From: Deltaproteobacteria bacterium
Lineage (GTDB): Bacteria; Desulfobacterota; JAJRXV01
Assembly (NCBI GenBank): GCA_024275075.1
Contig: JAJRZU010000054.1
Coordinates: 6,546 to 70,545 of the forward strand
Direction of reading: 5' to 3'
DNA: 64,000 nucleotides
The notes beneath the pieces are model-generated. The model had not been told where the DNA came from, ran no database searches, and saw nothing but the letters and a program-made list of their open reading frames with translations. The stretch's first letter is position 1, and each line of letters opens with the position of its first letter. The position numbers and the translations under genes are program-made. This document shows positions 2,170 to 18,857 of the stretch, one piece after another.

Positions 2170-2187
2170 ATAGTAAAAAAGTACTCC

Positions 2188-4200: not shown

Positions 4201-4210
4201 ATACAGGCCT

Positions 4211-4693
4211 TTACTCTTTTTTCTTAAGTGTGTCCTTCTCTTGGGTCGATAAAACATTGTTGAGTTTCAATATCATCAAAAGATCATCGCCATACTTATA
4301 TACACCGAAAATATAATCAGTGTTGACCCCTTCAAGCATTCTTGGCGGCGGTTTTATGTTCTTAACATTGATTTTTATCACTTCTCTTACCTCATCGACG
4401 ATGAGCCCGACGATCTTCTTCTCGATAGAAACGATTATTATCCTCGTCTTTTGACTCGCCTCTTTCTGTTCAAGCTCAAATTTTTTCCTCATGTCTATTA
4501 TCGGTATAACAACGCCTCTTAGATTTATAACGCCTTCGATGAAAGCGGGCGCTTTGGGGACAATAGTCAGTTTGAGCGGTTTTATGATCTCCTTTATCTT
4601 CATAATGTCGATTACATAAAGTCCGTCATCGACTTTGATCACCACAGCCTGACGTTCTAACGTTTCTTCTGAAGATACAAAATCCTTATCCAT
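4211..4693 (-). CDS. cheW: Chemotaxis coupling protein CheW
   Basis: Single CheW domain (VIDIMKIKEI..NLRGVVIPIIDMRKKF). Confidence 0.85.
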   Translation of the reverse strand: MDKDFVSSEETLERQAVVIKVDDGLYVIDIMKIKEIIKPLKLTIVPKAPAFIEGVINLRGVVIPIIDMRKKFELEQKEASQKTRIIIVSIEKKIVGLIVDEVREVIKINVKNIKPPPRMLEGVNTDYIFGVYKYGDDLLMILKLNNVLSTQEKDTLKKKE

Positions 4694-4703
4694 TTATCCC
4701 CCG

Positions 4704-5267
4704 CTATATGTCGATATCCAAAACGTTCTTAAGGTTCATAATGATCGCGAAAGTGTTCTCATATTTACCGATACCAGAGATAAACTCGGCGCTTACTCCG
4801 CTGATTATCGGTGGGGGCGGCTCGATGTTATCCTTTGCTATCCGTATAACGTGAGTGACTTTATCAACTATCATACCCCAGCTCCTGTTTTCGTCCCGCG
4901 CGATGATTATCCTTGTGTCCCTGTCGTAGTCTTTTACGTCAAGCCCCAATCGCTTCCTCAGGTCAAACACCGGTACTATCACGCCTCTTAAAGAGATGAT
5001 ACCGGTAATGAAATCCGGTGAGCCGGGCACTTCGGTGAATTCCCTTAGCTTTACTATCTCCTTGATACTCATTATGTCGATCGCGTATTCTTCTGACGCC
5101 AGCTTGAAACAAAGGATGTTTAAGAGATTCTCGGACACTTCCGCCGAAGTCTCGAACCCGTCCGCATAAAACTCCTCATCAATAAAGAGTTTCGGGTCAA
5201 AGTTCTCTAACCCTTGCTCCTCAAATACGTCATCATTGTTATTTGTGTTTTCGTCCACTTTCCCCAT
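4704..5267 (-). CDS. cheW: Chemotaxis coupling protein CheW (second copy, acidic N-terminal extension)
   Basis: CheW domain (YAIDIMSIKEIVKL..ISLRGVIVPVFDLRKRLG). Confidence 0.85.
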   Translation of the reverse strand: MGKVDENTNNNDDVFEEQGLENFDPKLFIDEEFYADGFETSAEVSENLLNILCFKLASEEYAIDIMSIKEIVKLREFTEVPGSPDFITGIISLRGVIVPVFDLRKRLGLDVKDYDRDTRIIIARDENRSWGMIVDKVTHVIRIAKDNIEPPPPIISGVSAEFISGIGKYENTFAIIMNLKNVLDIDI

Positions 5268-5273
5268 CCTGCC

Positions 5274-7349
5274 CTAATGAAGCGCTTCCTCTATCAATGC
5301 GCCGACATCTATCACCAGAACGGTTTTCTGGTTGCCAAGATCAGTCGCGCCCGCTATCCCCTTGATGTTCTTAAATGTATCGCCTATCGACTTTATTACG
5401 ATATCCTGCTGACCCCTTAGCGCGTCGACGATCACTCCGATCCTCTTCAGCCCGAAACCGATCACCACAACGAAGATCTTCTCCCTGTCACTTTGAGTCT
5501 CTTGCAACTCAAACATATTTTTCAGCCGCAAAAGTGGGAGTGTCTCATCCCTTAGCTGCATGACCTCCTTCTTTTCTATCGTCAATATCTGCTCAGGGCG
5601 TATTCTTAGTATCTCGCTTACGGAATTCAATGGTATCGCGTACAGCCTGCCTGACAGCTCGATAATAAGCGCCTGTATTATCGCAAGCGTTATCGGGAGT
5701 GTCAATATCACCTTGGCGCCGGCGCCCTCTTCGGATTCTATATCGACCATCCCTGAGAGTTTTGAGATGTTAGACTTCACAACGTCCATGCCTACTCCCC
5801 TGCCCGAGGTCTCGCTGACTTCGTCTTTTGTGCTGAACCCGGGTATCAATAAAAGGTTATATATATCTTTATCATTGAGCTCCTCATCCGGGTCGATGAG
5901 CTTGTTCTCGATCGCTCTTTCGCGTACTTTTGCTTTATCGATACCTTTCCCGTCATCTGCTACCTCTATGACGACATAATTCCCTTTTTGAGAAGCCCGT
6001 AACGTTATTAAGCCCTTCTCGGGCTTGCCGGCCGCCTTCCTCTCCCCGGGTGACTCTATGCCATGGTCGACGGCGTTCCTTATCGTGTGCATTATCGGGT
6101 CGCCCAGCTCCTCGATGATCAGCTTGTCCAGCTCGGTATCCGCGCCGTACATCTTCAGCTCTATCTCCTTACCGGTTTTCCTGGACAATTTCCGTATGAT
6201 CCGCGCCATCTTCTCAAATATCTGGCTGAGCGGGATCATCCTTATACCCATGACACTGTTCTGGAGCTCGTCAAGCTTACGGCTGAAGACCCGGTTAGCT
6301 TTGTAAAGCTCTATCGCGACACCGGTGAAGCCCTCCTTAGCCCGGAGCTTGTCAGATATCCCACCGATTATCGCCTTGCTTAGCACCAGCTCGCCTACGA
6401 TGTTCATCAGGCTGTCAAGGCGGCTTATATCCACTCTTACCGTCGAGCTGATACTCTTGACCGCTTTGTCCGCACCGCTATTTGCGCTCAGCGGCGTTGA
6501 CCTTTGCGGCTCTGCCCCCGCCGGCTTCGTTATAGGTGCCGCTTCATCCTTGTCCGGCGCCTCCTCTGGTTCTGTCTCAGGCTTCTTAGAGAGGTCATGC
6601 ACAGTTATCGTAACTGTTGACGCCGCTAATATATCATTAGCATCCTTGTTGGTGCCGACTAATATGTCAAATTCGATCGTCCCTTCCTTCGCTTCCCCTG
6701 AAGAGGGTAAAATGCTGATACCCTCCCCTAATGGCTTCAGGTCTGTGGTTATCTTTGAAAGCTCTTCATCGAATATCTCTAAGGAGAAGATCGAGTGGAC
6801 TAAAAAAATGTTCTTTTTACTCTTCTCGTTCTCGCTTAAGCGATGCTCCTCATATTCGGTCAGGACGCTTAATATCTTCTTGTCAATGTAGAATTTCTTT
6901 GTTTCAGGAGCCGCGCCCACCTTACCGGTAGTCGCCCCTTGCAACTTGGCGTTCAGCTCCAGGATGAAGCCGTCTACCTCCTCTTTCCTCGCGACGTGCC
7001 CCTTTATCCCGACCTCTTTGACCAGCTCTGTCAGAAACTCGATCCCCTCAAAAAGGATATCTAAAACGTTTCGACTTAATTTTATTTTACCTAACCGGAT
7101 CGAGTCTAAGATATTCTCAAGCTCGTGGCTTAAGTGACCGATATCCTTGAAGCCAAGCATACCGGCAATGCCCTTTAAAGAGTGAGCGTTCCTGAAGATG
7201 TTGTTTAACAGGTCAGGGTCAACATCCTCGATATTCTGCGAAGAACTTATCGACATCAGATCAGAATTAATACTCTCAACGATCTCATCTGCCTCCGCCA
7301 AGAACTCCTTGATTGTCTCTTTGGTTACGCCTTCTACCTTTTCTGACAT
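5274..7349 (-). CDS. cheA: Chemotaxis histidine kinase CheA
   Basis: Hpt P1 (HSLKGIAGMLGF), dimerisation, HATPase (GRGVGMDVV) and C-terminal CheW-like P5 domain. Confidence 0.9.
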   Translation of the reverse strand: MSEKVEGVTKETIKEFLAEADEIVESINSDLMSISSSQNIEDVDPDLLNNIFRNAHSLKGIAGMLGFKDIGHLSHELENILDSIRLGKIKLSRNVLDILFEGIEFLTELVKEVGIKGHVARKEEVDGFILELNAKLQGATTGKVGAAPETKKFYIDKKILSVLTEYEEHRLSENEKSKKNIFLVHSIFSLEIFDEELSKITTDLKPLGEGISILPSSGEAKEGTIEFDILVGTNKDANDILAASTVTITVHDLSKKPETEPEEAPDKDEAAPITKPAGAEPQRSTPLSANSGADKAVKSISSTVRVDISRLDSLMNIVGELVLSKAIIGGISDKLRAKEGFTGVAIELYKANRVFSRKLDELQNSVMGIRMIPLSQIFEKMARIIRKLSRKTGKEIELKMYGADTELDKLIIEELGDPIMHTIRNAVDHGIESPGERKAAGKPEKGLITLRASQKGNYVVIEVADDGKGIDKAKVRERAIENKLIDPDEELNDKDIYNLLLIPGFSTKDEVSETSGRGVGMDVVKSNISKLSGMVDIESEEGAGAKVILTLPITLAIIQALIIELSGRLYAIPLNSVSEILRIRPEQILTIEKKEVMQLRDETLPLLRLKNMFELQETQSDREKIFVVVIGFGLKRIGVIVDALRGQQDIVIKSIGDTFKNIKGIAGATDLGNQKTVLVIDVGALIEEALH

Positions 7350-7351
7350 CG

Positions 7352-7732
7352 TTATGTTTTACTCTTTTTCAGGATTTCTTTTACTTTCCGCTGCATATAC
7401 TCCGGGTCAAACGGCTTTACGATATATTCCTCCGCGCCTAACTTCAAGCCCTTCTCCCTGTCCTTCAAACTGCCCTCTGTAGATACTATTATCATCGGTA
7501 TGGATTTATAGTTGTCATTGTTCTTCACAAAATTTACAAGCTCGAGACCGTTTATGTTGGGCATGTTTATGTCAGTGATAATAAGGTCGAATTTCAGGCG
7601 GGGCAGCTCCCGCAGAGCATCGAAACCAGAAGACGCTTCGACAATCTCATAATCATCTGAATCCTCTAACGTTGTCGCGATCATAGAACGCATCGTCGGG
7701 GAATCTTCCACTACCAGTATCTTATAAGACAT
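7352..7732 (-). CDS. cheY: Chemotaxis response regulator CheY
   Basis: 126-aa single REC domain (ILVVEDS..DLIITDINMP..KPF). First gene of the che operon. Confidence 0.9.
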   Translation of the reverse strand: MSYKILVVEDSPTMRSMIATTLEDSDDYEIVEASSGFDALRELPRLKFDLIITDINMPNINGLELVNFVKNNDNYKSIPMIIVSTEGSLKDREKGLKLGAEEYIVKPFDPEYMQRKVKEILKKSKT

Positions 7733-8118
7733 TTCTCACCTTTTGTTAAAAATTGATGAATCAAGAGAAGTAACTAACTATTATCCACTAAGCTTAACAT
7801 ATTTTAAAAATAATTCAATACTATTTTATTTGATTGCAAGACATGGCTGCACAACAGATAATAAGCAGGGGGAAGCAGACACTGCTGCGCTCTTACGGGA
7901 ATAACGGGTCGCGCAAGGTCTTATAAATATCATACTTTTCAACGTATTACCGCCTTTTTTGGCTACGGAAAAAAAATCAAAACTATGAAAAAATTTCATA
8001 GTAATTAAGCGATTATTTGTTAGAATAAGGTAACAAGGGGCGGCCGCGAGAATTAATGCACGCATAACATGGTGTAATCATGGGAGATCTGTGGGCGGCG
8101 AGCGATACGTGGTGGAGG

Positions 8119-8134
8119 TGGTACGGTAATTGCT
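8119..8134 (+). promoter_or_regulatory. Candidate sigma-54 (-24/-12) promoter TGGTAC-N5-TTGCT upstream of the minor-pilin operon
   Basis: tgGTACggtaaTTGCt has correct GG/GC spacing and one mismatch to TGGCAC-N5-TTGCW. It sits about 47 nt upstream of the 8181 ATG. A sigma-54 activator gene is also in the window (53511). Confidence 0.45.
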
Positions 8135-8180: not shown

Positions 8181-9248
8181 ATGGGATCTTTCCGCACAGA
8201 AAAAGACGCAGGCTTCATTTTAGTAACGGTTCTTTTAATGATAGTGATATTATCGTTAATTGGTATAACCAATATGATAACCTCTTCTAATGAAGTGCTT
8301 ATCGCCGGTTATGTCAACAAGAGCAAAGAGGCCTTTTATGTATCTGAGGCGGCGCTTGAGGAAGTGAAGTATTTCGTCTTGAACGATCCTATGAAGAGCA
8401 CATCGACCGCGGTCGGCCCGGGCACTTTGCAGGATGACACTCAGAACTGGGCGACTGATGAATACGCCGGTATGTATTTAGTCGATAACGCCGCGAGTGA
8501 AATGCTAATATCAGGGAATAGTTTTGACACGTTAAATGTTTCTGGCACCCCTTTGGCCGGCTCTTACCATATAGTGTTCAAAGTATATGATTCAGGCACC
8601 TCTGGTATCAATGGCGCAGGCAGCGCGAACACCTTTAATGTTCCTGGCATGGCATGGGCGACTGACGAATGGTTCAACCACATTCTCGTTGACTCCGCAG
8701 GCTCTGAGTTTACCATTGTCAGCAACACCGCGGACACCCTTACCGTAGCCGGTACCCCTGTGAGTGGTGACTGGTCGATATTCGGCAACATAGGCGGCTC
8801 TGATGTTATGACCGTTGTGAACGGCTACTCACCGCTACCGAGCTACATCAACAGCTACCAGGTGGGGTGGGTACTGATCGATTCTAACAATAACAAGTTT
8901 AACGTAGATGACGTGAGTGGTTTTATCGGTAATGATATCAACTTAGAAGCAGGGGCCGGTACACCGGCGCATGGTTCGTTTACTTTGGCGATGCCGGGCT
9001 GGATGTATAATTCGAACTCACCATTATACGCGGGCGGCGGTACCTCGACATACAACACAAGCTATACTATCGGTAGCGCTGTGGCAACTGCCACCGTTAC
9101 GATAACACCGGTTGGCGGTTCAAAGAGTTCATTTATCATGAAATCGGTAGGGACTTTGGCGAAGAACAGGAAAGCGATTACAATGTCATTAAACGATTCA
9201 GGTAACGGGGACGTACTGTTCAGGGATTGGCGGGAAGTATCGCCGTAG
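8181..9248 (+). CDS. PilX-N-domain minor pilin-like protein
   Basis: Strong RBS AAGAGGAGGATAAGAGG then ATG at 8181 (ORF track starts earlier at 8130). The hydrophobic N-terminal helix GFILVTVLLMIVILSLIGI..EAFYVSEAALEE matches the PilX_N domain. Contains two roughly 45-aa internal repeats. Confidence 0.6.
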   Translation: MGSFRTEKDAGFILVTVLLMIVILSLIGITNMITSSNEVLIAGYVNKSKEAFYVSEAALEEVKYFVLNDPMKSTSTAVGPGTLQDDTQNWATDEYAGMYLVDNAASEMLISGNSFDTLNVSGTPLAGSYHIVFKVYDSGTSGINGAGSANTFNVPGMAWATDEWFNHILVDSAGSEFTIVSNTADTLTVAGTPVSGDWSIFGNIGGSDVMTVVNGYSPLPSYINSYQVGWVLIDSNNNKFNVDDVSGFIGNDINLEAGAGTPAHGSFTLAMPGWMYNSNSPLYAGGGTSTYNTSYTIGSAVATATVTITPVGGSKSSFIMKSVGTLAKNRKAITMSLNDSGNGDVLFRDWREVSP

Positions 9249-9340: not shown

Positions 9341-9934
9341 GTGAGCTCATTGAATAAAAAAGGTTTTACGCTTATAGAGATGATGGTGGTGATCGCCTTG
9401 ATCGGGATACTGTTATCAATAGCGATCCCCTCGATCTTAGGGCAGAGACCCTTATGGAAGGTAAACGGCGCCGCACGGGGCATTTTGACTGATATGAGAT
9501 TGACTCAGAGCAAAGCGATACGCTCTGGTGATATGCACGCCATAGTATTTTACGCCTCACTAAGAAAATATGAGATATTTGAAGATAATGGAGCCGGCGG
9601 CGGCACAATAGGGGACGGTATAAGAAACGGCGGGGAAGCGATCATTAAAACCGTAAATCTTGACGATAATTACAAGGACCTCCTCTTTGGCACTATCGGA
9701 GCGCCTCATGTAAGTGGAGGGACGATACCTGCCGACGGCATAGACTTCCCGACAAGAGGGCCGGGTAAATCAGTACGGTTTCGGCCTGACGGTTCTTCAG
9801 AGGACGGTTCACTTTACCTCTACCCGATAACCACTACTCCCCAGGCAAGCTGGCAGCGCGCGGTAGAGGTCATCGGTAATACCGGCAGAGTCAGGGCATT
9901 CTCCTGGCAGACAAGCAGCGCGTCATGGAAATAA
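9341..9934 (+). CDS. Type IV minor pilin / pseudopilin, FimT/GspH-like
   Basis: Prepilin N-terminus KGFTLIEMMVVIALIGIL (G|F cleavage/methylation motif) followed by a GspH/FimT-like domain. GTG start. Confidence 0.7.
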   Translation: MSSLNKKGFTLIEMMVVIALIGILLSIAIPSILGQRPLWKVNGAARGILTDMRLTQSKAIRSGDMHAIVFYASLRKYEIFEDNGAGGGTIGDGIRNGGEAIIKTVNLDDNYKDLLFGTIGAPHVSGGTIPADGIDFPTRGPGKSVRFRPDGSSEDGSLYLYPITTTPQASWQRAVEVIGNTGRVRAFSWQTSSASWK

Positions 9935-9956: not shown

Positions 9957-10355
9957 ATGAGGAAAATGAGGAAAAAGCTTGGTTTTACTTTAGTGGAGGT
10001 ATTGGTCGCTTTGACGATCCTTGCTATTGCAATGCTTGGGTTTGTACCGATGGTAATAACGACGATCAGGGCGCATTCCTTTGGCAACAAGATGACAAGA
10101 GCGGCGGAACTCGCGCAGGATAAGTTAGAGGATATAAGGCGGATGGAGTTTACCGACCCTGATATCAGCCCGATGGCGTACCCGTGGTCATCTACCCCTG
10201 AAACTTTTGATAATATCTACGAGAGAGTTTATTCCGTTGATTTAATAGCTGCTAATACAAGTATAAAGAGAATAACAGTTAGTGTCGACTGGCGTGCGAC
10301 AGGTGTATCGACAGTGCAGAACACAACTTATGTAACTACTAAAGTACGATATTAA
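9957..10355 (+). CDS. pilV: Type IV pilus minor pilin PilV-like
   Basis: LGFTLVEVLVALTILAIAMLG prepilin motif plus a PilV-like body (RAAELAQDKLEDIR). Confidence 0.7.
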   Translation: MRKMRKKLGFTLVEVLVALTILAIAMLGFVPMVITTIRAHSFGNKMTRAAELAQDKLEDIRRMEFTDPDISPMAYPWSSTPETFDNIYERVYSVDLIAANTSIKRITVSVDWRATGVSTVQNTTYVTTKVRY

Positions 10356-10403
10356 CAGGGGCGCGACACAAGGTTCATGCGCCCGGGATACAGGAGGCAG
10401 GAG

Positions 10404-13400
10404 ATGATACCCATGAATAAAGAGAGAGCGAATAAATATATGCGCCTGGCGTGTAAGAAAAAGGGTTTTTCAATTGTCGAGCTCATAATAGCCCTTGCAA
10501 TCACGTCTATTGCGATAGTCGCTATCTATAATCTTTTTATTACTCAGCAAAAAGGTTTCGCGATACAAGAAGAAGTCGCGAATATGCAGCAAAATAACAG
10601 GGTTGCAATGGAAGAGCTCGCGCGGGTAGTAAAAATGGCGGGGGTCGGTGTTTTGCCTCCCCAGCAAAAGATATTATATTGCGGGCCTTACGACTTTGTA
10701 TTCAGCGGCAACGTAAACGGTACGGCCGGCGACGTAATGGCCATGAACGCCACTGTCGGTACATCGCTGTATACCGCGCCAGACCCCACGCCCTTCGTCA
10801 ACCAGGATTCAGAGACTTACCGCTGGACACTGGATAAAAACGGCGATGGCAGCGTAGATGCCGCCGATTATACAAACACTAATTCCGGTGCGACCCAGTA
10901 CTCTTTGTGGCGGGAAGTCTATACCGGTACAACCTCGATAATCGATGAGTTGGCCCCGGGAATAGCCGTGGCGGACACTCAGGGTAATCAGGTTGTCGTG
11001 TTCCAGTATTGGGGTAATTTTGACGCTGACCCTGCTCTGGATCTGTGGGGTGACGCGAACCAGGACGGCGAGCTTCAGACAGCGGAGATCCTCACAAATG
11101 GCTTATCCGGTGCGTTGGACCCGGTCACAGACCTTACCGGTAATGCCAGGGCTCTTGACGATATGTTGCAAAAAGTGGATCTTACAGTCATCACCGAGAC
11201 AGGAAAGAACGATCCAAACTACCCGACAAACTCAGGTTTCAGGCAAACAAGACACGCTTCTATGGTAACCCCGCGTAACCTGTGGACATGCGCCAATCTG
11301 GATATCGTACCGGGCTATAAATCGACCCTTAAAATCTCAACGGGCATCCCTGGCGGCCCACCGGCCGGAGACAACACGACAATACAGTTCATAGTGCTTG
11401 AATCTGGTATCCCTAAGAAGGATAAGGTTGTAACATTCAGCGCGACGATCGGTGGAGTGGACATCACCACATTAGGCGGCTCGTTATCCACCACCACAAC
11501 GACATCAGATGTCAACGGATTTGTAAGCCTTACAGTCAGCACACCTTCGTGTACTTATGTTCCGCCTGGAACTTTCCCTATAGGCGGTACAGTAGTCGTC
11601 ACCGCTGTGCTGCCCTCAGAGATTACACCGTTTGGCCCATGCTCCGCGGATTCTGAAAACGTTAACCTGACGATGGTTGTCGGTGACCAGAGTATTCTTA
11701 ATGTAACAAATACACCGAGCTCATCAGTCGTGTTCAGCTGTGGAGACACTACCATCGCCACATTGTTTGACCTACAGGTAGAGGACGCGTGTGGTAACCC
11801 TGTAACACCGAACGCACCGATCAACCTGACAGCTTTCGGCGTTAGCGGCGGTGCATGTTTCGCAGGGTTTGGGACTCTTACACCAAATGTCATACCGATT
11901 ACGACAAGCAGTGTCACGGTATCTTACACATCCGAGGCGAGCGGCCCTTATGCCGCTGACAGGACAGCGGGTAACATAGAGCAGTTCATTGTGAATATAG
12001 ATCATGACTTTTATGGCGCGCCAAACTGCTTAGCGCCTTTGACGTCTCTTTATGTAGAAACGTTCCCTGATCATATAACCAATTTTGACCCGCTTACCAA
12101 TCCGATTACCGCTACAAACCATACGGATTGCAACATGGCCGGGTTCAAGTCTACTGACGCTATATTCAATGTAGAGGATTCATGCGGCAACGCGGTCTAT
12201 GATATGACCCAGTTTACCCAGACAGTTGGCGCTAACGTTGAGGTCACATTTACGCCAGACCCGGCGGGGATCTTAAATACTCCATCAGACCAGGGGACTA
12301 TATCGCCCGCGTTACCCGCGAATATACAAACATCGGTCGCCGGTGATTACTATCTCACATATCTTGAGCCGTCATGTACTCTGCCGCCGCTTTATACAAG
12401 GATAATTCAACCGACTATCACTCTTACCCCAAACAATTTTACAAACCAGGGGCCTGTTAATTTCGGGCTGAACCTGCAAAGCTGCCTTGACTGTGAGATC
12501 GTCACAAGCACGCCGGTAATGAGCAATTGCATCTCTGACACTACCGCAAGCGTTATCGATGTCCCAGGAGTTACCGTTGTGTTCTGCGGGATAGCAGACG
12601 GAACGCCGGTAGAGCTTGAGCTGTCATCATCGGCGGGGCCGGCTCTGAATGCGAGTTTTGACCAAAGCAACCCTTCAGTTTCAACGATTATGGGGACTTT
12701 TACATTAAATTCCTTCTCAGCTTCCATTTATGGCGGTAACGCACCAAGTGGAGCGACTATATCGATAACCGCGTACTCACCGGACAAGGCGACTTACGCC
12801 ACCGATCCGGCGGGCTTTACATGTTCAGGTATCGATATAATAACGATTGAATCGTATTGTACATATATCGGTGTATTTAATGAGATAATCCAGTTAGGCT
12901 ATACGGAGATAACCGATATCTCAGCGAATGACAAACTTTACATACAAGTAGAGGACTGTGACGAGAACAAGGACTCTACCGTAGTGGAAACGCTGACGGT
13001 TACGGTGACCAGCCCGCAGGGTTATTCACCGCCGGCCCCGGACATAGAGATCGCTATCCTTACCGAGACAGGTCCTGATACCGGTATATTCAACAGTAAT
13101 ACATACGTACCGCCTACCAGCAATACGCCAGGACCGTTGCCGGTTATTTACTGCGGTTTAGGGCCTGGCGGCGATACGGCTTATAATGGCAGGTTGTTCC
13201 TGAGACCCGGCTATGATGTGACAGTGGAGTATGTTGATCCTGATGACCCGACAGACACCGGATGCGTAAAAACATTAGGCGTAAACACGTTCAGCTGTCC
13301 GGCATTCGTTTACTCATACTATGGAAGCTCATACATTCACCTTGACAGACACGGTATAACCGCGAACCTGTCATTAGGCGGCAATATCTTTACAAATGGC

Positions 13401-16400
13401 GAATTTGAATTGTCAGGCGATATGTCTGTCGATAACAGAGGCCCTGATGGCGTAATCCATACCCCTGATGATTTCCAGACCGTTTCTCTTGGTCACATGT
13501 CATTAGCCGGTAACGTTATCGGTGACTGTTACGCGCCTTCTGTAGACCTGTACGGCCCTGACGGAGCCGGTCAGAACACGCAGGTATTCCCACCAAATGA
13601 AGGTGTTGTCCTGGGTGATTTATACCTCATGGACGGGTTCTATTATGATGATGTCGTAAGTACATATTACCCTGAAATAATAGGTTCGAGGGGGAACCCG
13701 CCAAGCTATGGCAATTATACGTCATTAGCCGCTTCTAATATCGCGCAGCCGCCCCCGGGCAGCAGCGTGCAGGTACATGCCGTTACAGGCGGCATGTTAC
13801 ATACCGGCGCCGTATTCGCGACCCCGAACGAACCGGGCTATCCGTATGACCCGAATGTCGATCCAAACTATGCTCTGCCGGTACCAGATGGAGAGGTGCT
13901 TGTCGCGAGTGATTTGCCAACGTTTGATTTCTCCCAGTCTGTCGCCTGGTCACAGGACTTGACTACAAAGTATCATATGTTTGTCGGTGAGGACACATAC
14001 TTCAACAGTATGGCGGAATTCGAGACATTCCTGACAACAGCGAGACCGACGTATACCGCGATAGACGGAACGTCTTACACTACGCCGCATATAAATCCGC
14101 AGGGGAAAACTATCTACATAATCGGTGACCCGTACGAAGGTACTGTATTCCACTTCCCGAATGGTTTCGACACCACGCAGTTAAGCGCGCCGTACCAGTT
14201 TATTGTTCTTGGTATGATAGTATCTGAGACAAGGTTGAGCATTAAAGGTAATCATGATGGTATAGCAGTCTACGGATGCGGCAAACGCCCGATTGACTGG
14301 ATAGACGGCTGGACAGGGGTGACTTACTCTAATTATGATGACTGGGTAGCTGTACGCGGCGGCGAAGAAAATATCCCTTATGATATGATCGCGTTAGTCG
14401 CCAGAACAAAATTAGAGGTAAAAGACGGAACCGCCCATACACTGTTAAAAGGTATCGTCTATAGTGAAAACGAGAGCCATTTCCACAATAAAACCCCACA
14501 GGGCAAGGCGTTCTTGCACGGCGCGGAGATCGCCAACGTTATACACAACTGCCTGTACATGGACTTTCGGTACAATGACTGCGTAAGGCGGGCAGCCGCC
14601 TACTGGTACGGATGTTATTGCGACTCCGGCGGCGCGGCAATCGCCTGTTCGCTTGCAATAACGCCTTCTTCGGCTACTGTTACAAGGGGCGGGAACACTG
14701 TCACTCTGACAGGGTTAAATTCATTGAGCGGTATATATAACTTTACGGTGACCGGTACGAGTGGTGGAACTGTCTCTGTTGTCGGTGACACCGCCACATA
14801 CACTTCAGGGCCGAATGTTGGCACTGATATTGTTTCTGTCTCGTCGTCCGGGTGTATCGGGGCGTCAGCCACAATAAATGTCATCGATTATTGCAATGTT
14901 GTCGTCAATCCGGCCACTCTCACTATTCCGCTTGGACAGGATTGGATACTGTCGGCTTCATCGCTCCAGGGCGGTCCGTTTAACTGGTCGATAGTACAGA
15001 ACCAAAGCGGTAGCTCCCTTGATATGAACGTTGGTGACGCCGTAACATATACGGCTGGCGCTACCGGTGGTATAGATATCATCAAGGTCACTGATTCCGG
15101 CGGCTGTGCCGAAGCGTTCATTACAATAACCGTTGACCCGTGTTACGTGCTCGTTGAGCTCTATGAGTTTGACGGCATTAACTGTACATCGATCCAGACT
15201 AACACTGTAACCGTCAACGGGGAGGTCTGCGTATCCGCGGTGCTGGGTGACCCGACCGCTCCAGGATTCATCTGGTATTCTGATGATCCTGCCGGTCTCT
15301 TCTTCGATGCAGTATCAGGCCTGTGGGTAGGTTCCGGCACATTAAGCACGCTCTTAGGGCAGGCGGTCAGATACCAGGCTGGCGGTGTCTTGGGCACCTA
15401 CACCATATCTGCGATGGATGATGAGAGCTGTACGGGTACTCAACTGTTAAGCACATGTGATATTACGCTGCTTGATTCGTTCGGCGCCATCAACACGACT
15501 ATTTATGAAACGCAAACCGTCGATTATGTGGGTTACGTCGGTATCGCGGTACCGGCGCGTACTATCGATACATGGGATACCACCGACCCGGCAGGCCCGG
15601 CGGCGCTTACAGTGACCAGCCCGACTACCGGTACATATACACCATCGATGCCGGGTAACTTTGAAGTGACTATATATGATAATGTCGGGTGTTCGTCAAC
15701 CGCTTTCGTCACGGTTCTGCCATGCGCGACGATAACGATAAATCCGACGGACGCGACTGTCAGCTTAGTTGCGGGCAATACGGAATTGTATACAGCTGTC
15801 GGTGGTACGCCGCCATATACATGGTCTACCTCTGACACCAATATCGGGGTAATCGATCCGGTAACCGGCGTGTTTACACCGATTGCCGCATGGCCGGTTC
15901 CAATAAACGTCTACGTGGTGGACAGCGCCGGCTGTACCGGTCAGACTACGGTACTGGTGCAGTGCCCTGCAATAAGTGTAGAGCCGGCAAACGCTACAAT
16001 TGTCTATGCAGATCCTTTGACACCGGTATCATACAGCGCAAGCTTCGGGTCAGCGCCTTATTCATGGTCGATTGACGACCCCACAGTCGGGTCTATTGAT
16101 TCATTAAGCGGGATGATGACAATAACCGGTGAAGGAACCGCGACTATTACCGCTGTTGACGCATACGGATGTATAGGCACGACGACGGTTACCGTGGCGT
16201 GTCCCACGCTTACCATATCGCCGGATAACGCGACATTTAACATCGGTGATACCGCCAATTACTCCGTAGCCGGGGGAAGCGCGCCATATAGCTGGTGGAT
16301 AGACAACCCCGCGGTCGGTACGATAGCCCCGGTGACCGGCGTGTTCAATGCGCTCGCCGGCGGTACGACAACGATAAATGTCAGCGACAAGTACGGGTGC

Positions 16401-17435
16401 GTGGATACTACCGCGGTTAGTGTCGCCTGCCCGGTCGTCACGATCGCTCCGGTCACACCGTCATACCTCGTCGGCGCAACCGACACGTTCTCGGCAGCCG
16501 GTGGTATGGCGCCATACACATGGACGAGCTCGGCTCCATTAGTTGCTACGATCGACTCTTTGACCGGCGCGCTCACCGCCGTCGGTGAGGGCAGTGCGAT
16601 AATCACCGGTACTGATACAAACGGATGCTTCGCAGATACTACGATTACGGCGACATGTCCGACGCTCACTATCACGTCGGCCAGCTCGACTTATACAACA
16701 GGCGACACCGATACCTTCACGGTAACTGGCGGAACGGCGCCATACACATGGGTGAGCTCAGACACGACGGTTGGAACGATAGACGCGACTGGCGCGTTTG
16801 CCGCCGTTGGCACGGGTAGCACAGTGATAACTGTCACCGGCAAGTATGGTTGTACGACAAATAAGGCGGTTACTGTCGTTTGTCCAACAATAACCATAGC
16901 GCCGAACAACCCGACGTACACCGAAGGCGATACAGACACGTTCGCCGCGGCGGGTGGTGCAACGCCGTATACATGGTCAAGTTCAGATTCGCTGCTTGGT
17001 ACGGTTGACTCGCTGACAGGCGCATTCTCGGCTATCGCCGCCGGCAACATAACTATAACGGTTACAGATACTTACGGTTGTGTCGCCACGACACCGGTCA
17101 CCATCAACTCGGCATGTTCTGAGACTATTACAGTCACCAAGTTCAAGATCGATTGTAATAAAGAGAAGGTGGAAGTTACTGCTGACTCCACCAAGCTTAA
17201 TACATCGCTGGATTTACAGTTTGTTGTGTACGATGGCGCCGGTGTCGCGCAGTGGGGACCTCAGGTTATATCATGGGATGCCGGTAAGGGCGAGTATCGA
17301 TACAAACAAGAAGGGTTAGGTAACTTTATGGATGCCTGGGATGACAATTACTACGTAATAGTGTCTGACTTAATTGAATGCCCGGGGACTGACAGCGCTC
17401 CATACACGATAGAGCAGAGGAAGAACTGTCCATAA
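10404..17435 (+). CDS. Giant (2344 aa) PilW-like minor pilin fused to a Ca-loop and Ig-like-repeat adhesin region
   Basis: AGGAGG RBS then ATG at 10404. N-terminus KKGFSIVELIIALAITSIAIVAIYNLF..QQNNRVAMEELARVVKMAG is PilW-like. Two DxNxDGxxD Ca-loop motifs follow. About 10 Cys-bracketed roughly 78-aa Ig-like (BIG_2-like) repeats span 14646..17112, with a Cys-rich C-terminal domain. Rho-independent terminator follows. Confidence 0.7.
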   Translation: MIPMNKERANKYMRLACKKKGFSIVELIIALAITSIAIVAIYNLFITQQKGFAIQEEVANMQQNNRVAMEELARVVKMAGVGVLPPQQKILYCGPYDFVFSGNVNGTAGDVMAMNATVGTSLYTAPDPTPFVNQDSETYRWTLDKNGDGSVDAADYTNTNSGATQYSLWREVYTGTTSIIDELAPGIAVADTQGNQVVVFQYWGNFDADPALDLWGDANQDGELQTAEILTNGLSGALDPVTDLTGNARALDDMLQKVDLTVITETGKNDPNYPTNSGFRQTRHASMVTPRNLWTCANLDIVPGYKSTLKISTGIPGGPPAGDNTTIQFIVLESGIPKKDKVVTFSATIGGVDITTLGGSLSTTTTTSDVNGFVSLTVSTPSCTYVPPGTFPIGGTVVVTAVLPSEITPFGPCSADSENVNLTMVVGDQSILNVTNTPSSSVVFSCGDTTIATLFDLQVEDACGNPVTPNAPINLTAFGVSGGACFAGFGTLTPNVIPITTSSVTVSYTSEASGPYAADRTAGNIEQFIVNIDHDFYGAPNCLAPLTSLYVETFPDHITNFDPLTNPITATNHTDCNMAGFKSTDAIFNVEDSCGNAVYDMTQFTQTVGANVEVTFTPDPAGILNTPSDQGTISPALPANIQTSVAGDYYLTYLEPSCTLPPLYTRIIQPTITLTPNNFTNQGPVNFGLNLQSCLDCEIVTSTPVMSNCISDTTASVIDVPGVTVVFCGIADGTPVELELSSSAGPALNASFDQSNPSVSTIMGTFTLNSFSASIYGGNAPSGATISITAYSPDKATYATDPAGFTCSGIDIITIESYCTYIGVFNEIIQLGYTEITDISANDKLYIQVEDCDENKDSTVVETLTVTVTSPQGYSPPAPDIEIAILTETGPDTGIFNSNTYVPPTSNTPGPLPVIYCGLGPGGDTAYNGRLFLRPGYDVTVEYVDPDDPTDTGCVKTLGVNTFSCPAFVYSYYGSSYIHLDRHGITANLSLGGNIFTNGEFELSGDMSVDNRGPDGVIHTPDDFQTVSLGHMSLAGNVIGDCYAPSVDLYGPDGAGQNTQVFPPNEGVVLGDLYLMDGFYYDDVVSTYYPEIIGSRGNPPSYGNYTSLAASNIAQPPPGSSVQVHAVTGGMLHTGAVFATPNEPGYPYDPNVDPNYALPVPDGEVLVASDLPTFDFSQSVAWSQDLTTKYHMFVGEDTYFNSMAEFETFLTTARPTYTAIDGTSYTTPHINPQGKTIYIIGDPYEGTVFHFPNGFDTTQLSAPYQFIVLGMIVSETRLSIKGNHDGIAVYGCGKRPIDWIDGWTGVTYSNYDDWVAVRGGEENIPYDMIALVARTKLEVKDGTAHTLLKGIVYSENESHFHNKTPQGKAFLHGAEIANVIHNCLYMDFRYNDCVRRAAAYWYGCYCDSGGAAIACSLAITPSSATVTRGGNTVTLTGLNSLSGIYNFTVTGTSGGTVSVVGDTATYTSGPNVGTDIVSVSSSGCIGASATINVIDYCNVVVNPATLTIPLGQDWILSASSLQGGPFNWSIVQNQSGSSLDMNVGDAVTYTAGATGGIDIIKVTDSGGCAEAFITITVDPCYVLVELYEFDGINCTSIQTNTVTVNGEVCVSAVLGDPTAPGFIWYSDDPAGLFFDAVSGLWVGSGTLSTLLGQAVRYQAGGVLGTYTISAMDDESCTGTQLLSTCDITLLDSFGAINTTIYETQTVDYVGYVGIAVPARTIDTWDTTDPAGPAALTVTSPTTGTYTPSMPGNFEVTIYDNVGCSSTAFVTVLPCATITINPTDATVSLVAGNTELYTAVGGTPPYTWSTSDTNIGVIDPVTGVFTPIAAWPVPINVYVVDSAGCTGQTTVLVQCPAISVEPANATIVYADPLTPVSYSASFGSAPYSWSIDDPTVGSIDSLSGMMTITGEGTATITAVDAYGCIGTTTVTVACPTLTISPDNATFNIGDTANYSVAGGSAPYSWWIDNPAVGTIAPVTGVFNALAGGTTTINVSDKYGCVDTTAVSVACPVVTIAPVTPSYLVGATDTFSAAGGMAPYTWTSSAPLVATIDSLTGALTAVGEGSAIITGTDTNGCFADTTITATCPTLTITSASSTYTTGDTDTFTVTGGTAPYTWVSSDTTVGTIDATGAFAAVGTGSTVITVTGKYGCTTNKAVTVVCPTITIAPNNPTYTEGDTDTFAAAGGATPYTWSSSDSLLGTVDSLTGAFSAIAAGNITITVTDTYGCVATTPVTINSACSETITVTKFKIDCNKEKVEVTADSTKLNTSLDLQFVVYDGAGVAQWGPQVISWDAGKGEYRYKQEGLGNFMDAWDDNYYVIVSDLIECPGTDSAPYTIEQRKNCP
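15723..17112 (+). repeat. Six near-identical tandem 231-nt (77-aa) Ig-like coding repeats inside the giant pilin gene
   Basis: Each repeat reads CP(T/A)(L/I)TI(S/A)P..(G/A)GxAPYxW..GT(I/V)D..TG.(F/L)..A.G..TI(T/N)V(T/S)D.YGC...(V/I)TV, repeated six times in frame. Confidence 0.7.
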
Positions 17436-17457: not shown

Positions 17458-17490
17458 AAAAGACGGGGGAATTATCCCCCGTCTTTTTGT
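17458..17490 (+). terminator. Rho-independent terminator after the giant pilin gene
   Basis: AAAAGACGGGGGA-atta-TCCCCCGTCTTTTTGTTTG, a 10-bp GC-rich stem plus T-tract. Confidence 0.65.
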
Positions 17491-17723: not shown

Positions 17724-18857
17724 TTGTTGCAAATGGCGCCAGACAACATTTCAACGGAAACAAATAAAATGGATGATAATAAATCAAACGGTACTGTTTT
17801 GATTGTTGATGATGAATACACTACCATTGACCTTTTGATGGCTATCCTTAAACCATACGACTATAACCTGATAGGGGCCCAGTCCGGCAAAGAAGCTCTT
17901 GATATCATTCAAAAAGAGAAAGTAGACCTTGTCCTTTTGGATTTAATGATGCCTGAGATGAACGGCTATGATGTCTGCAAGGCGATAAAAGGTGATAAAA
18001 ATACAAGAGCGATACCAGTGCTGGTAATAAGCGCGCTAAGTGAGGTGCAGGACAATATAAAAGCGATGGAAGTCGGCGCGGAAGGCTTTCTGGCGAAACC
18101 TTTCAATAATAAACTGGTTGTCGTATATGTCCAAACCCTTATCAAGGTGAAAAAACTCACCGATGAGCTGATCAAACTCTACCAGCTAAAGGATGATCTG
18201 ACAAGGATGATCGTCCACGACCTGAAGAACCCTTTAATCTCGGCAGTAGGTTTTATAAACCTGTCGATAAAGGAAAAAAATCTGGACAAAATAAAGTGGT
18301 ACCTGAGCATTATTAAGAACAGTGTCGCGGATGCTCTTAATTTCATTGAGGACTTACACGACATCACCCGTCTGGAAAATAATAAGTTTACGCTGAATAA
18401 AAGTGATGAAAATATCTATTTGATGATCGCTGATATTATTGACGCTATGACGCCTTTATTTAAAAAAAGAGGGCTGACAACAAAATTCGTAAGTGACTGT
18501 AACCTGCGGCATTATATCGATCCGCAGGTATTCAAAAGGGTCATGCAGAATATCTTCACAAACGCCGCGAAATATGCGAACAAAAACTCTACAATAATGA
18601 TCTATGCGTCGATAAAAAATAATCTGCTAAGGGTGCAGGTATCAAACGAGGGCGATGTCATTCCTGAGGAATACAGGTTAAAGATATTCGAGAAATTCGG
18701 GCAGGTAGAGATAATGCAAATGGGCGGCAACGTCGGCAGCGGCTTAGGGCTCGCGTTTTGCAAAATGGCGGTCAAAGCGCATAACGGTAACATCTGGGTA
18801 GAATCACCGGCGGTTGAATTTGATGACGGCACGACTATCATCTTTGAGATATTATAA
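17724..18857 (+). CDS. Hybrid response-regulator/histidine kinase (REC-HisKA-HATPase)
   Basis: REC domain (VLIVDDE..LLDLMMPEMNGY..KPF), H-box (MIVHDLKNPL) and HATPase G-boxes (GSGLGLAFCK). Track start is TTG; the in-frame ATG 9 nt downstream is an alternative. Confidence 0.8.
   Translation: MLQMAPDNISTETNKMDDNKSNGTVLIVDDEYTTIDLLMAILKPYDYNLIGAQSGKEALDIIQKEKVDLVLLDLMMPEMNGYDVCKAIKGDKNTRAIPVLVISALSEVQDNIKAMEVGAEGFLAKPFNNKLVVVYVQTLIKVKKLTDELIKLYQLKDDLTRMIVHDLKNPLISAVGFINLSIKEKNLDKIKWYLSIIKNSVADALNFIEDLHDITRLENNKFTLNKSDENIYLMIADIIDAMTPLFKKRGLTTKFVSDCNLRHYIDPQVFKRVMQNIFTNAAKYANKNSTIMIYASIKNNLLRVQVSNEGDVIPEEYRLKIFEKFGQVEIMQMGGNVGSGLGLAFCKMAVKAHNGNIWVESPAVEFDDGTTIIFEIL

Follow-up and report, generated by a model that had tools for sequence, protein, structure and literature searches.

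A 2343-residue PilW-type modular minor pilin as a candidate tip-displayed adhesin

The versatility of type IV pili stems from the contents of their tips, and the pili of anaerobic, Thermodesulfobacteriota-like bacteria have been implicated in attachment both to minerals and to partner cells. In diderm models a separate PilC/PilY1 protein sits at the tip, where it is held by beta-strand addition to PilX (PMC13533445), and in the monoderm model small modular pilins occupy the tip (PMC8179133). In the diderm-type H-I-J-K set of minor pilins encoded by the locus described here, 213 kDa of adhesin-like domains belong to the J subunit itself, and no pilY1 is linked to the locus. This raises the question of whether a minor pilin and a large tip adhesin have been merged into one polypeptide. 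All coordinates refer to the 64-kb stretch of DNA that was analysed (the window).

The giant pilin gene (Table 1) is the fourth and last of an operon with the order pilX-like, gspH(fimT)-like, pilV-like and giant pilin. Its longest frame covers 10377-17435, and translation from 10404 yields 2343 residues and a stop codon with no internal stops; this start is preferred because AGGAGG/CAGGAG lies directly 5′ of it and because the homologues start with MLPxNK. The mature form has a computed mass of 243 kDa, a pI of 4.05 and 54 cysteines. Four full-length homologues, drawn from JGI, ENA and NCBI assemblies, are colinear with the protein from residue 1 to the last residue in a five-member alignment (49-60% identity over the full length, 46-59% by BLASTP). 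Chance is of no concern for a 7-kb ORF with four colinear homologues, indicating that the gene is real. No sign was found that a frameshift, a chimeric join in the assembly or read-through across two or more genes had produced the ORF, although regions of repeats are in principle prone to mis-assembly and the homologues have about three fewer Ig repeats than the window copy. Against such an artefact, the frame is unbroken, a ribosome binding site precedes the gene, a terminator follows it, and no tandem repeat was detected in the gene at the DNA level, which also rejects a recent tandem duplication at that level. Since the four homologues come from different projects and independent metagenomes, are colinear end to end and share the same cassette, a frameshift or assembly join within the ORF can be excluded, leaving the artefact explanation extremely improbable. 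The proposal of a single uninterrupted gene that closes a minor-pilin operon is thus borne out.

Table 1. Features of the giant pilin locus, with coordinates in the window.
Feature	Coordinates	Strand	Details and basis
Conserved upstream element ATAACATGGTGTAAT	8064..8078	+	~40 nt 5′ of the -24 box; candidate activator/IHF site
Sigma-54-type promoter candidate TGGTACGGTAATTGCT	8119..8134	+	-24 GG / -12 GC
PilX-like minor pilin, K subunit	8181..9248	+	355 aa; Pfam PilX_N 30.3 bits (cutoff 25.5)
GspH/FimT-like minor pilin, H subunit	9341..9934	+	197 aa; GFTLIE; N_methyl 37.1 bits
PilV/GspI-like minor pilin, I subunit	9957..10355	+	132 aa; GFTLVE; N_methyl 35.2 bits
Giant PilW-type (J subunit) modular minor pilin	10404..17435	+	2343 aa
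Class III signal-peptide leader, aa 1-21	10404..10466	+	Motif KKKG/FSIVE; N_methyl and TIGR02532 above cutoffs
Complete PilW-type pilin module, aa 1-295	10404..11288	+	Ends ...VTPRNLW; profile and hhalign
EF-hand-type 12-residue loop 1, D144-D155, DKNGDGSVDAAD	10833..10868	+	Inside pilin module
EF-hand-type loop 2, D217-E228, DANQDGELQTAE	11052..11087	+	Inside pilin module
Cys-bracketed beta-rich domains, aa 296-964	11289..13295	+	Cys positions; no Pfam match at E<1
Clade-specific highly conserved domain, aa 965-1414	13296..14645	+	Probably beta-helix/solenoid
Ten Cys-bracketed Ig-like (Big_2-type) repeats, aa 1415-2237	14646..17114	+	75-105 aa each
C-terminal domain, aa 2238-2343	17115..17432	+	4 Cys; conserved end KNCP; no Pfam match
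Intrinsic terminator closing the operon	17458..17487	+	13-bp stem, 7 GC pairs, then T run
REC-HisKA-HATPase hybrid kinase, possible regulator	17724..18857	+	Pfam domains

The N-terminus carries a prepilin signal, with an M1-G21 leader, a predicted cleavage site between G21 and F22 and Glu at +5 (KKKG/FSIVELIIALAI). It scores above the cutoffs of both Pfam N_methyl PF07963 (25.8 bits, cutoff 21.2) and TIGR02532 (19.8, cutoff 16.3), and the sole hydrophobic segment of the protein spans roughly aa 20-47, as judged from 19-residue windows that begin at aa 20-29. By these sequence criteria the giant pilin is a type IV pilin, which would be processed by a prepilin peptidase. A profile of aa 1-312 found 5821 proteins at E<1e-3, and hhalign aligned the pilin module with its short pilin relatives at 100% probability, colinear over aa 17-299. 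One PilW protein, P0105 (PF16074 51.1 bits, cutoff 26), aligned to aa 19-104 at 99.3% probability and 42% identity, and the two also have in common the C-terminal motif ..T.D..DP...R....V..RN(M/L). The stand-alone relatives P0063 and P0070 stop at RNLGY and RNLP, at the place where the giant pilin runs on. The best apparent stand-alone match, P0057 (319 aa), was found to be a contig-end fragment of a 1476-aa protein and was discarded as evidence of that kind.

Pfam PilW matches 12 of the 76 short relatives and every other minor-pilin family at most one; the PilW-positive relatives are 270-330 aa long, and none of ten ~200-aa relatives scanned matched PilW. The homologue P0005 (GCA_042574985.1, 'Thermodesulfobacteriota bacterium') is named 'PilW family protein' by NCBI. 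PF16074 gave no match to the giant pilin with either the full protein (E<=0.1) or aa 1-295 (E<=5), and NCBIfam PRK10557 reached 18.8 bits (cutoff 120) over aa 14-80 only. The PF16074 miss is a failed detection by a proteobacteria-centred model and not a structural absence. An AF2 model of aa 1-312, made from a shallow five-sequence alignment, had a pLDDT of 35.8, too low to be used for judging a GspJ-like fold, and sequence and profile searches of the PDB matched pilin N-terminal helices only. Judged by alignment, the whole module is homologous to curated PilW proteins, and its assignment to the J position is supported by the separate encoding of H, I and K and by the presence of Glu5 in H, I and J and its absence from K. 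The sequence-only reading had assigned the protein a PilW-type N-terminus on inspection; the pilin signal and the homology uphold this, and the similarity to PilW withstands profile comparison by way of P0105 and the short relatives, while PF16074 stays silent on the protein itself.

Two canonical 12-residue loops of the EF-hand type lie within the pilin module. Positions 1, 3, 5, 6 and 12 of loop 1 are D, N/D, D/N, G and D in all five homologues, and this loop was found in other large relatives as well; in loop 2 D217, G222, L224 and E228 are invariant, and two homologues have a one-residue insertion. Pfam EF-hand was not significant on the loops (E 0.58). Their residue pattern suggests that they may bind Ca. 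They had been described as EF-hand/PilY1-like, and of this the conserved EF-hand-type loops stand while the tie to PilY1 does not, there being no PF05567 match.

The extension adds 2048 residues (213 kDa), joined exactly at the normal pilin C-terminus, so that a complete PilW-type pilin is genuinely fused to a very large multi-domain module, as had been proposed. The first part of the extension, described earlier as ~900 aa of beta-rich sequence rich in Gly, Thr and Pro, resolves into two parts, a series of Cys-bracketed beta domains (aa 296-964) and a distinct conserved domain (aa 965-1414). A local hmmsearch found aa 300-815 in common with other giant PilW-type pilins (P0059, P0061, P0064, P0068, P0071 and P0072). 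Pfam searches with aa 296-815, 815-965, 965-1415, 2236-2343 and five mid-domains returned nothing credible, the matches to DUF7305 (E 0.13) and Dockerin_1 (E 0.039) being regarded as noise. The anticipated run of about ten Ig-like domains is present, with matches to Pfam Big_2 (76.3 bits, E 1.9e-21) and BiPBP_C (59.5 bits), and is followed by the expected Cys-containing C-terminal domain, which is conserved in the five clade members only.

The domain at aa 965-1414 contains many invariant His, Asp and Cys residues. An AF2 model of aa 812-1420, again from a shallow alignment, had a pLDDT of 46.5; the confident part, only about 175 residues, is beta-helical with no propeller, and Foldseek returned no significant match in the PDB. 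On this model the domain is probably beta-helical. Its clusters of invariant His, Asp and Glu could form an active module, in which case the effector would be mainly enzymatic, a polysaccharide lyase- or hydrolase-like domain degrading matrix or substrate polymers at the tip. We consider this improbable: the beta-helix model is of low confidence, its top matches are non-enzymatic beta-helices and adhesins, neither Pfam nor the PDB sequence search identified a catalytic family, and the protein has at least 16 Ig-like/beta domains, which are typical of adhesin stalks.

The three genes upstream encode the remaining subunits of an H-I-J-K set. The K subunit has a class III-type N-terminus without Glu5 (GFILVT), a ribosome binding site (AGAGGAGG) 5′ of its ATG at 8181, and five homologues, all of the same clade, with a conserved C-terminal tail (F.DW.E). 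The H subunit matches Pfam GspH (23.5 bits, cutoff 21) and TIGR01708 in part, and the best NCBIfam match of the I subunit is TIGR02523 type_IV_pilV (E 3.6e-10, below cutoff). The statement that the operon lacks a separate pilY1 or pilE agrees with the scans, in which no PilY1 family was detected in window ORFs >500 aa and no further GFxxxE pilin in the entire 64 kb. The window ORFs also include no major pilin, secretin or PilMNOP genes, and type II secretion uses the same HIJK logic without PilY1 (PMC13533445). Both observations would fit a system in which the class III signal serves for export or anchoring only and HIJK forms a short pseudopilus like that of type II secretion systems, with the extension either pushed through a secretin to the surface or kept in the periplasm and no long retractile pilus being made. 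However, the K subunit matches PilX_N rather than the GspK family of the T2SS, type IV PilV is the family that the I subunit matches best, the cassettes stand isolated outside gsp operons, and one relative's cassette adjoins a PilB/MshE-type ATPase gene. A pseudopilus therefore appears unlikely.

A candidate sigma-54-type promoter precedes the operon. It differs from TGGCAC-N5-TTGCW by one mismatch, which alone is not significant as 1.5 such matches are expected per window, but the same 16-mer (TGGTACGRTWATTGCT) occurs 49-72 nt 5′ of the pilX-like start in three related loci (L001, L002 and L008), where its flanks are not conserved. Further upstream, 8064..8078 forms an island of invariant columns in an alignment of four otherwise diverged upstream regions. 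The operon is closed by a terminator 23 nt 3′ of the giant pilin stop codon. Beyond it lies the hybrid kinase; kinases of the same architecture and size (376-378 aa) are found 3′ of the giant pilin in L001, L007 and L008, and from this recurrence a functional tie between kinase and giant pilin is possible.

The conserved promoter and the conserved neighbouring kinase suggest conditional expression. This would suit an accessory or alternative tip subunit, with PilY1 and perhaps other minor-pilin sets encoded elsewhere in the genome, the operon then being one of several interchangeable priming sets with a different binding specificity, deployed under conditions sensed by a sigma-54 activator or kinase. 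Myxococcus xanthus has three minor-pilin/PilY1 sets and unlinked pilY1 genes occur in many Myxococcota (PMC13190605), and the inspected sequence amounts to 64 kb of the genome. On the other side, ten independent loci with such pilins contain no linked pilY1, though linkage is the usual arrangement. Moreover, the large K subunit (355 aa) with its conserved C-terminal tail fits a self-complementing K that works independently of PilY1 (PMC13533445). We estimate that an accessory role is a serious but less probable alternative.

The fusion recurs in relatives, which had been called for as a check. Five clade members, including the window copy, share it, and the X-H-V-W cassette is common to all of their readable loci. 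Pattern searches for related loci with two patterns found none in genome contigs, so that the clade is unseen among GTDB representatives by those patterns, and one of the two patterns found none in metagenome contigs either. Beyond the clade, 54 of the 148 best cluster representatives are proteins of 800 aa or more that begin with the pilin module. These range from 800 to 2200 aa, and their readable contexts are H-I-J-K cassettes; one relative, P0058, is encoded directly 3′ of a PilB-type ATPase (MshEN+T2SSE), which links the module to the type IV pilus machinery. The content downstream of the module varies and includes Big_2, SdrD_B and FG-GAP propeller domains, a pattern of one carrier with changing effectors. 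A sister subfamily of ~1000 aa with the same module occupies the J slot of the canonical H-I-J-K order; it has an integrin-type FG-GAP propeller, and a PDB sequence search detected no similarity to PilY1. In the ten loci read, the PilY1 Pfam family PF05567 was listed for no called gene.

The arrangement had been thought unlike any described in type IV pili, but its principle has precedent. Modular pilins, in which effector modules displayed at the tip are grafted onto a pilin carrier, have been defined experimentally and surveyed; Streptococcus sanguinis supplies two, PilB, whose module is a vWA domain, and PilC, whose module is a lectin, and of the multi-domain examples that the survey of >1200 proteins names, the most extreme has 860 aa (PMC8179133, PMC9934059). 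With N_methyl followed by Big_2/BiPBP_C and the graft placed at the pilin C-terminus, the giant pilin falls within the definition of a modular pilin (Raynaud et al. 2021). Like the others it combines a class III signal and pilin carrier with C-terminally grafted effectors that are not pilus-specific, and, as for them, the prediction is that it occurs only in a tip complex, alongside other minor pilins, and serves in adhesion. Whereas the experimentally studied modular pilins are monoderm proteins of ~50 kDa with one extra module and belong to a PilABC tip, the giant pilin is the J subunit of a diderm H-I-J-K set, with a mass of 243 kDa and ~18 extra domains. The principle itself having been published, the novelty lies in the scale (2343 aa, against 860 aa in the survey), in the domain content and in the use of J as carrier within a HIJK set of the diderm kind.

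Ordinary PilW/PilJ/GspJ subunits of T4aP and T2SS share with the giant pilin the alpha-1 motif QEEVxxMQQNxRxAMxxLxxxxxMAG, Glu5, a C-terminal strand region (...T.D..DP...R....V..RN(L/M)) and encoding alongside H, I and K. They are ~200-330 aa long and end 1-2 residues past RN(L/M)G, whereas the giant pilin continues for 2048 residues, contains the two EF-hand-type loop insertions and has no direct Pfam PilW score. Like PilC/PilY1 and MshQ, the giant pilin is a large, multi-domain, probably Ca-binding protein whose gene closes a minor-pilin operon and which is expected to sit at the tip and serve in adhesion; the N-terminal effector parts of PilY1 vary too. PilY1 is however a non-pilin that docks non-covalently, donating its last beta-strand to PilX/PilK (PMC13533445). 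It ends in a PF05567 beta-propeller, and the giant pilin, itself a pilin with no propeller match, would be attached covalently through J instead of by beta-strand addition to K. Homology to PilY1 was rejected in the absence of any PF05567/IPR008707 match in the protein or the scanned window ORFs, and membership of the PilC/PilY1 family is in any case precluded by inspection, as these are defined as non-pilins.

Enlarged pilin-like tip subunits that function without PilY1 are also found among K-type proteins (Caulobacter CpaL/TadG, Thermus ComZ, T2SS GspK; ETEC CofB); the extra domain of ComZ is a beta-solenoid, and CofB has domains of the beta-repeat and beta-sandwich types. There it is the apical K-type (or T4b homotrimeric) pilin, of ~350-600 aa, that is enlarged, whereas here K is a separate protein of 355 aa and the enlarged subunit is J. 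Adhesins of the intimin/invasin type similarly present tandem Big_2 Ig-like domains as an extended stalk, but the giant pilin has no beta-barrel anchor, is anchored by its pilin helix and has Cys residues bracketing each repeat. Intimin membership was rejected, since NF033627 matched the Ig repeats only and scored 62.3 bits where its cutoff is 1400.

Taken together, these results lead us to interpret the giant pilin, with a probability of roughly 0.6, as a modular minor pilin in which a tip-displayed adhesin is carried covalently by the J subunit. The operon would be transcribed from the sigma-54-type promoter and the H, I, J and K products targeted to the inner membrane via their class III signal sequences, where prepilin peptidase would remove the leaders of H, I and J by a cut C-terminal to the conserved Gly, leaving a J carrier of aa 22-295. 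The HIJK initiation complex would then prime polymerization of a major pilin whose gene lies elsewhere, and would remain at the tip of the filament. The extension, being covalently part of the J subunit, would exit through the secretin together with the tip. On display it would form a long stalk, stapled by disulfides and stabilised by Ca, with ~6 beta domains bracketed by Cys, a head-like beta-helical domain, the ten Ig-like domains and a C-terminal knob. On attachment of the stalk to a surface, polymer or partner cell, retraction force would pass directly via the pilin helix, and the giant pilin would do the adhesive job of the separate non-pilin PilY1/PilC of model diderm bacteria. Published tip models place PilW below PilV and PilX (PMC13190605), a position in which a C-terminal graft of 213 kDa may be sterically awkward.

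If pilins of this kind are displayed at the tip, they widen the modular-pilin concept to proteins nearly three times as large and to a carrier subunit new to it, and they point to an unexplored class of long, disulfide-stapled tip stalks in anaerobic, Thermodesulfobacteriota-like bacteria. They would also put the licensing model to a natural test, since it predicts that K complements itself and that PilY1 is dispensable.

Within the view afforded by the 64-kb window, it is plausible that the giant pilin takes the place of PilY1 as separate tip adhesin. Type IV filaments without PilY1 obtain the licensing beta-strand in cis from their K subunit (PMC13533445). More tentatively, and with rather less than even odds, the locus may encode a PilY1-independent type IVa tip, with the adhesin covalent in J (PilW) and the licensing strand provided in cis by the enlarged PilX-like K. 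Retraction force would in that case be transmitted via the pilin helix and not via the PilY1-PilX beta-strand joint. The tips of type IV filaments would then be armed in a third way, the other two being PilY1/MshQ docked in trans and K subunits that are enlarged. Dozens of other large metagenome proteins begin with the carrier module, and its occurrence in 54 of the 148 best representatives, the sister group with an integrin-type propeller among them, suggests that such PilY1-independent tips would be widespread in uncultured diderm lineages.

The giant pilin is encoded by a single open frame (10377-17435, forward strand, in the six-frame ORF list of the window), and its translation contains no internal stops. 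Because the sequence AGGAGG-CAGGAG directly precedes the ATG at 10404 and the homologs begin with MLPxNK (MIPMNK in the window protein; alignment of five), this start was accepted, yielding 2343 residues (computed precursor 245.5 kDa, mature protein 243 kDa, pI 4.05, 54 cysteines). A whole-protein search of ENA, JGI and NCBI assemblies identified four full-length relatives (P0002-P0005, 2131-2192 aa; BLASTP identity 46-59%, query coverage 86-89%). Full-length alignment (49-60% identity) showed them to be colinear with the window protein throughout, leader to terminal ...KNCP, the number of Ig-like repeats being the sole length difference among the five. Gene context was legible for all four relatives (loci L001, L002, L007 and L008), each of which carries genes for a GspH/FimT-like (H), a PilV-like (I) and a giant pilin, preceded by a PilX-like (K) gene wherever the contig reaches (the L007 contig breaks off within its H gene); the DNA 5′ of the cassette differs among these loci. 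A frameshift or assembly join inside the ORF, raised in the sequence-only reading, is excluded since homologs from separate assemblies are colinear end to end, share the same cassette and match an uninterrupted frame. The proposed fusion of a pilin to a putative adhesin within one gene starting at 10404 is thus retained among relatives.

The N-terminus carries a class III signal peptide (KKKG/FSIVELIIALAITSIAIVAIYNLF; Gly -1, Phe +1, Glu +5), and this segment is the only hydrophobic stretch of the protein. Both Pfam N_methyl (25.8 bits, cutoff 21.2) and TIGR02532 (19.8, cutoff 16.3) scored above threshold, confirming the type IV prepilin N-terminus. Profile A2 (aa 1-312 of the five homologs), searched against 1.84 billion cluster representatives, matched 5821 proteins at E<1e-3 and 18 at E<1e-30. 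Several ‘short’ representatives are contig-end fragments of far longer proteins, which calls for caution with length distributions; the top-scoring one, P0057 (319 aa), is a fragment on a 1.4-kb contig with a 1476-aa member in its cluster and was excluded as evidence. Comparison of the module with 76 short relatives using hhalign gave 100% probability and colinearity from aa 17 to aa 299, spanning the extended alpha-1 helix (QEEVANMQQNNRVAMEELARVVKMAG) through the C-terminal strand region (VDLTVITETGKNDPNYPTNSGFRQTRHASMVTPRNLW). Stand-alone relatives end in ...TPRNLGY (P0063, 302 aa) or ...TPRNLP (P0070, 276 aa), and proteins matching Pfam PilW (P0105, 51.1 bits, cutoff 26; P0134 and P0121 more weakly) end in ...V(K/N)VRNMG(L/S). 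The giant pilin runs on past the RNL end (RNLW-T-C296), and because it continues where its stand-alone relatives stop, the extension is a clean C-terminal graft on a complete pilin rather than an insertion.

The PilW identity suggested for this module stands through its relatives, although Pfam PilW did not match the giant protein directly. P0105 aligned with aa 19-104 at 99.3% hhalign probability (42% identity), 12 of the 76 short relatives matched PilW and at most one matched any other minor-pilin family, and the NCBI pipeline labels P0005 a ‘PilW family protein’. Moreover, H, I and K are each encoded by their own operon gene, supporting assignment of the giant pilin to the J position. Against the assignment, PDB profile searches with the module gave matches limited to the N-terminal helices, and its predicted structure was of low confidence (pLDDT 35.8). 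From these sequence comparisons we conclude that the N-terminal module is a PilW-type, J-position pilin module with a putative GspJ-like fold.

Two EF-hand-type loops are present within the pilin module (see table), in inserted stretches that the short PilW-like consensus lacks. In loop 1, positions 1, 3, 5, 6 and 12 are kept in all five homologs; in loop 2 the D, G, L and E are kept in the same alignment, and both loops are also seen in further large relatives. Neither EF-hand nor Dockerin of Pfam scored significantly for these regions; calcium binding is a reasonable inference from pattern and conservation. The likeness to PilY1 that had also been proposed did not hold, as the loops sit inside the pilin module and nothing was found to link them to the PilY1 propeller site. 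Calcium sites within pilin folds are known from T2SS pseudopilins, and the simplest reading is that the loops would stabilize the carrier module.

The anatomy of the extension (aa 296-2343, 213 kDa) was worked out with Pfam and with local HMM searches in which segments of the alignment were compared with every protein retrieved. Residues 300-815 are common to other giant PilW-type pilins (P0059, P0061, P0064, P0068, P0071 and P0072). The most conserved region contains the motifs YIHLDRHG, LGGNIFTNGEFELSGDM, GSRGNPPSYG, IYIIGDPYEGTVFHF, ESHFH and HNC...NDCVRRAA.WYGCYCD and had neither a Pfam match nor a PDB sequence match; an enzymatic rather than adhesive head is improbable. The anticipated series of about ten Cys-bracketed Ig-like domains was recovered, each repeat opening with a cysteine and having a second approximately 10 residues from its end. 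The window copy exceeds the four homologs by about three Big_2-type repeats (window 15900-17114, aa ~1934-2166) and P0002 has one extra, indicating that stalk length differs among lineages. No DNA-level tandem repeat was detected in this region, so the expansion is old, with diverged repeats, rather than an assembly stutter. A long extracellular stalk able to withstand mechanical load would be expected to have serial Ig-like modules, a cysteine pair in each domain and an acidic pI, as this protein does. Several giant-pilin loci have redoxin/thioredoxin-like genes ~2-8 kb away, some of them fused to multihaem cytochrome motifs, and a tie between the many paired cysteines of the giant pilin and disulfide handling in the periplasm of these anaerobes is conceivable.

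Features of the giant pilin, its operon and related loci
Feature	Location	Position	Strand	Remark
Chemosensory cluster	window	211-7732	-	CheB, CheR, 689-aa HEAT-repeat protein, two CheW, CheA, CheY
Conserved island	window	8064-8078		ATAACATnnTGTAAT
Sigma-54-type -24/-12 candidate	window	8119-8134		TGGTACGGTAATTGCT
Sigma-54-type element	L001; L002; L008	7783; 7731; 537		
PilX_N protein	window	8181-9248	+	GFILVT, without Glu5
GspH/FimT-like pilin	window	9341-9934	+	GFTLIE
PilV/GspI-like pilin	window	9957-10355	+	GFTLVE
EF-hand-type loop 1	giant pilin	D144-D155		DKNGDGSVDAAD; fits canonical 12-residue loop
EF-hand-type loop 2	giant pilin	D217-E228		DANQDGELQTAE; fits canonical 12-residue loop
Beta-rich domains bracketed by conserved Cys	giant pilin	aa 296-964		no Pfam family
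Most conserved part	giant pilin	aa 965-1414		five-member clade only
Ten repeats, 75-105 aa each	giant pilin	aa 1415-2237		Pfam Big_2, E 1.9e-21
Four-Cys domain	giant pilin	aa 2238-2343		clade-specific
REC-HisKA-HATPase hybrid kinase (~377 aa)	window; L001; L007; L008	17724-18857; 16595-17731; 7592-8728; 9527-10657		
Multihaem MtrC/OmcA-like cytochrome	window	31711-33621		
623-aa LysM protein	window	35762-37633		
GAF-GGDEF cyclase	window	37930-40101		
Tandem giant pilins	L004	997-6345; 6559-12315		1782 aa (N_methyl/Big_1/Big_2); 1918 aa; ahead of PilX_N, GspH, PilV
Redoxin/thioredoxin-like genes	L001; L003; L006	18300-19313; 1-1956; 1509-3652		

Three pilin genes lie upstream of the giant gene and a terminator (13-bp stem) lies 23 nt 3′ of its stop codon, indicating that an H/I/J/K minor-pilin operon ends with this gene, as first proposed. 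The missing Glu5 of the PilX_N protein is a hallmark of the apical K subunit. This protein contains three internal ~55-aa repeats (W..DEW.G..LVD....EF.I.SNTA..L.V.G.P..G) and a conserved C-terminal tail (KKAIS.SL.DSGNGD..F.DW.E), and its homologs came solely from the same small clade (6 proteins). A six-frame motif scan detected no further GFxxxE pilins in the window, and Pfam scans of its large ORFs gave no match to PilY1, secretin or pilus ATPase. The PilY1 Pfam family was likewise absent among neighbouring genes in the ten loci read, upholding the view that the operon has no separate pilY1. A PilY1 encoded elsewhere in the genome, with this cassette as one among several alternative sets, is possible but on the unlikely side; the large K subunit (355 aa) with its conserved tail fits a PilY1-independent tip, without proving it.

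Large proteins are common among carriers of the module: among the 148 best cluster representatives, 54 have at least 800 aa and 19 at least 1400 aa. Six large representatives (1097-1918 aa) were scanned; all contained N_methyl and four matched Big_2, three of them strongly. The P0058 gene (1808 aa) lies directly 3′ of a PilB/MshE-type ATPase gene, with PilX_N, GspH and PilV genes after it; surface display through a pseudopilus, with no long pili, is quite unlikely. P0064 has the same W-X-H-V arrangement with a second giant pilin before it (locus L004), which suggests paralogous, possibly interchangeable tip adhesins. A sister subfamily of ~985-1085 aa (alignment A8: P0098, P0099, P0104, P0108, P0119, P0138, P0162, P0170, P0178, P0180, P0182 and P0190) has the same pilin module, including the EF-hand-like loops, and fills the J slot in canonical H-I-J-K gene order (L009, L010). 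Its extension contains three SdrD-B-like domains (PDB SdrD, E 1.8e-19), integrin-alpha-type FG-GAP propeller repeats (integrin alpha-4, E 6e-8) and a conserved terminal G.LVIYF strand. This pairing of propeller and strand recalls the architecture of PilY1, but no similarity at the sequence level was found. The overall pattern across the family is one conserved carrier with variable effector modules, as described for modular pilins and for variable PilY1 N-termini (PMC8179133).

In the published tip order PilA, FimU, PilW, PilV, PilX, PilY1, PilW lies beneath PilV and PilX (PMC13190605). PilY1/PilC docks via its last beta-strand, donated to PilX/PilK, and in PilY1-less systems the licensing strand is provided in cis by an enlarged K subunit (PMC13533445). 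Our functional proposals for the giant pilin derive entirely from sequence: the four subunits H, I, J and K would come together at the inner membrane as an initiation complex that primes the pilus and then stays at its tip, where the extension, as a covalent part of J, would serve as adhesin. Such a system would interest pilus specialists as a naturally occurring case without PilY1 on which the tip-licensing model could be tested. The giant pilin belongs to the type IV pilin superfamily and agrees with the published definition of modular pilins. Membership of the PilY1/PilC family was rejected, as the protein lacks a propeller and is a pilin in its own right, and an intimin identity was also rejected. 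A full-text literature search turned up no account of PilW-type pilins extended by Ig repeats, nor of any pilin this large; the nearest mentions are the 860-aa extreme of a modular-pilin survey (PMC8179133) and, for the Pelobacter Pih pilus, ‘large minor pilins’ that are given no names (PMC3543383).

A sigma-54-type candidate with one mismatch to the consensus lies 47 nt 5′ of the pilX-like ATG. A single match in the window is not significant alone, but the element (TGGTACGRTWATTGCT) recurs 5′ of the pilX-like gene at each of the four loci for which this region is available, amid diverged surroundings, and the same four share a second conserved island ~40 nt further 5′. The hybrid kinase gene is the downstream neighbour of the giant pilin in four of the five clade loci (the fifth contig stops short of the position) and its product may regulate the cassette; in L007 a stand-alone receiver gene comes next. 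Given the conserved element and the adjoining kinase gene, the cassette is probably RpoN-dependent and conditionally expressed. The cassette of sister locus L010 has a PAS-sigma54 activator gene immediately 5′ of it. The chemosensory cluster in the window is complete and is transcribed divergently from the pilin operon; homologous loci carry haem biosynthesis genes or PolA in its place, so that a functional tie to the pilins is doubtful. Finally, cytochrome, LysM and GAF-GGDEF genes lie 14-23 kb 3′ of the giant pilin, and the distantly related loci L003 and L006 are flanked by SLT-LysM, redoxin-cytochrome and GAF-GGDEF genes, which may reflect loose synteny.
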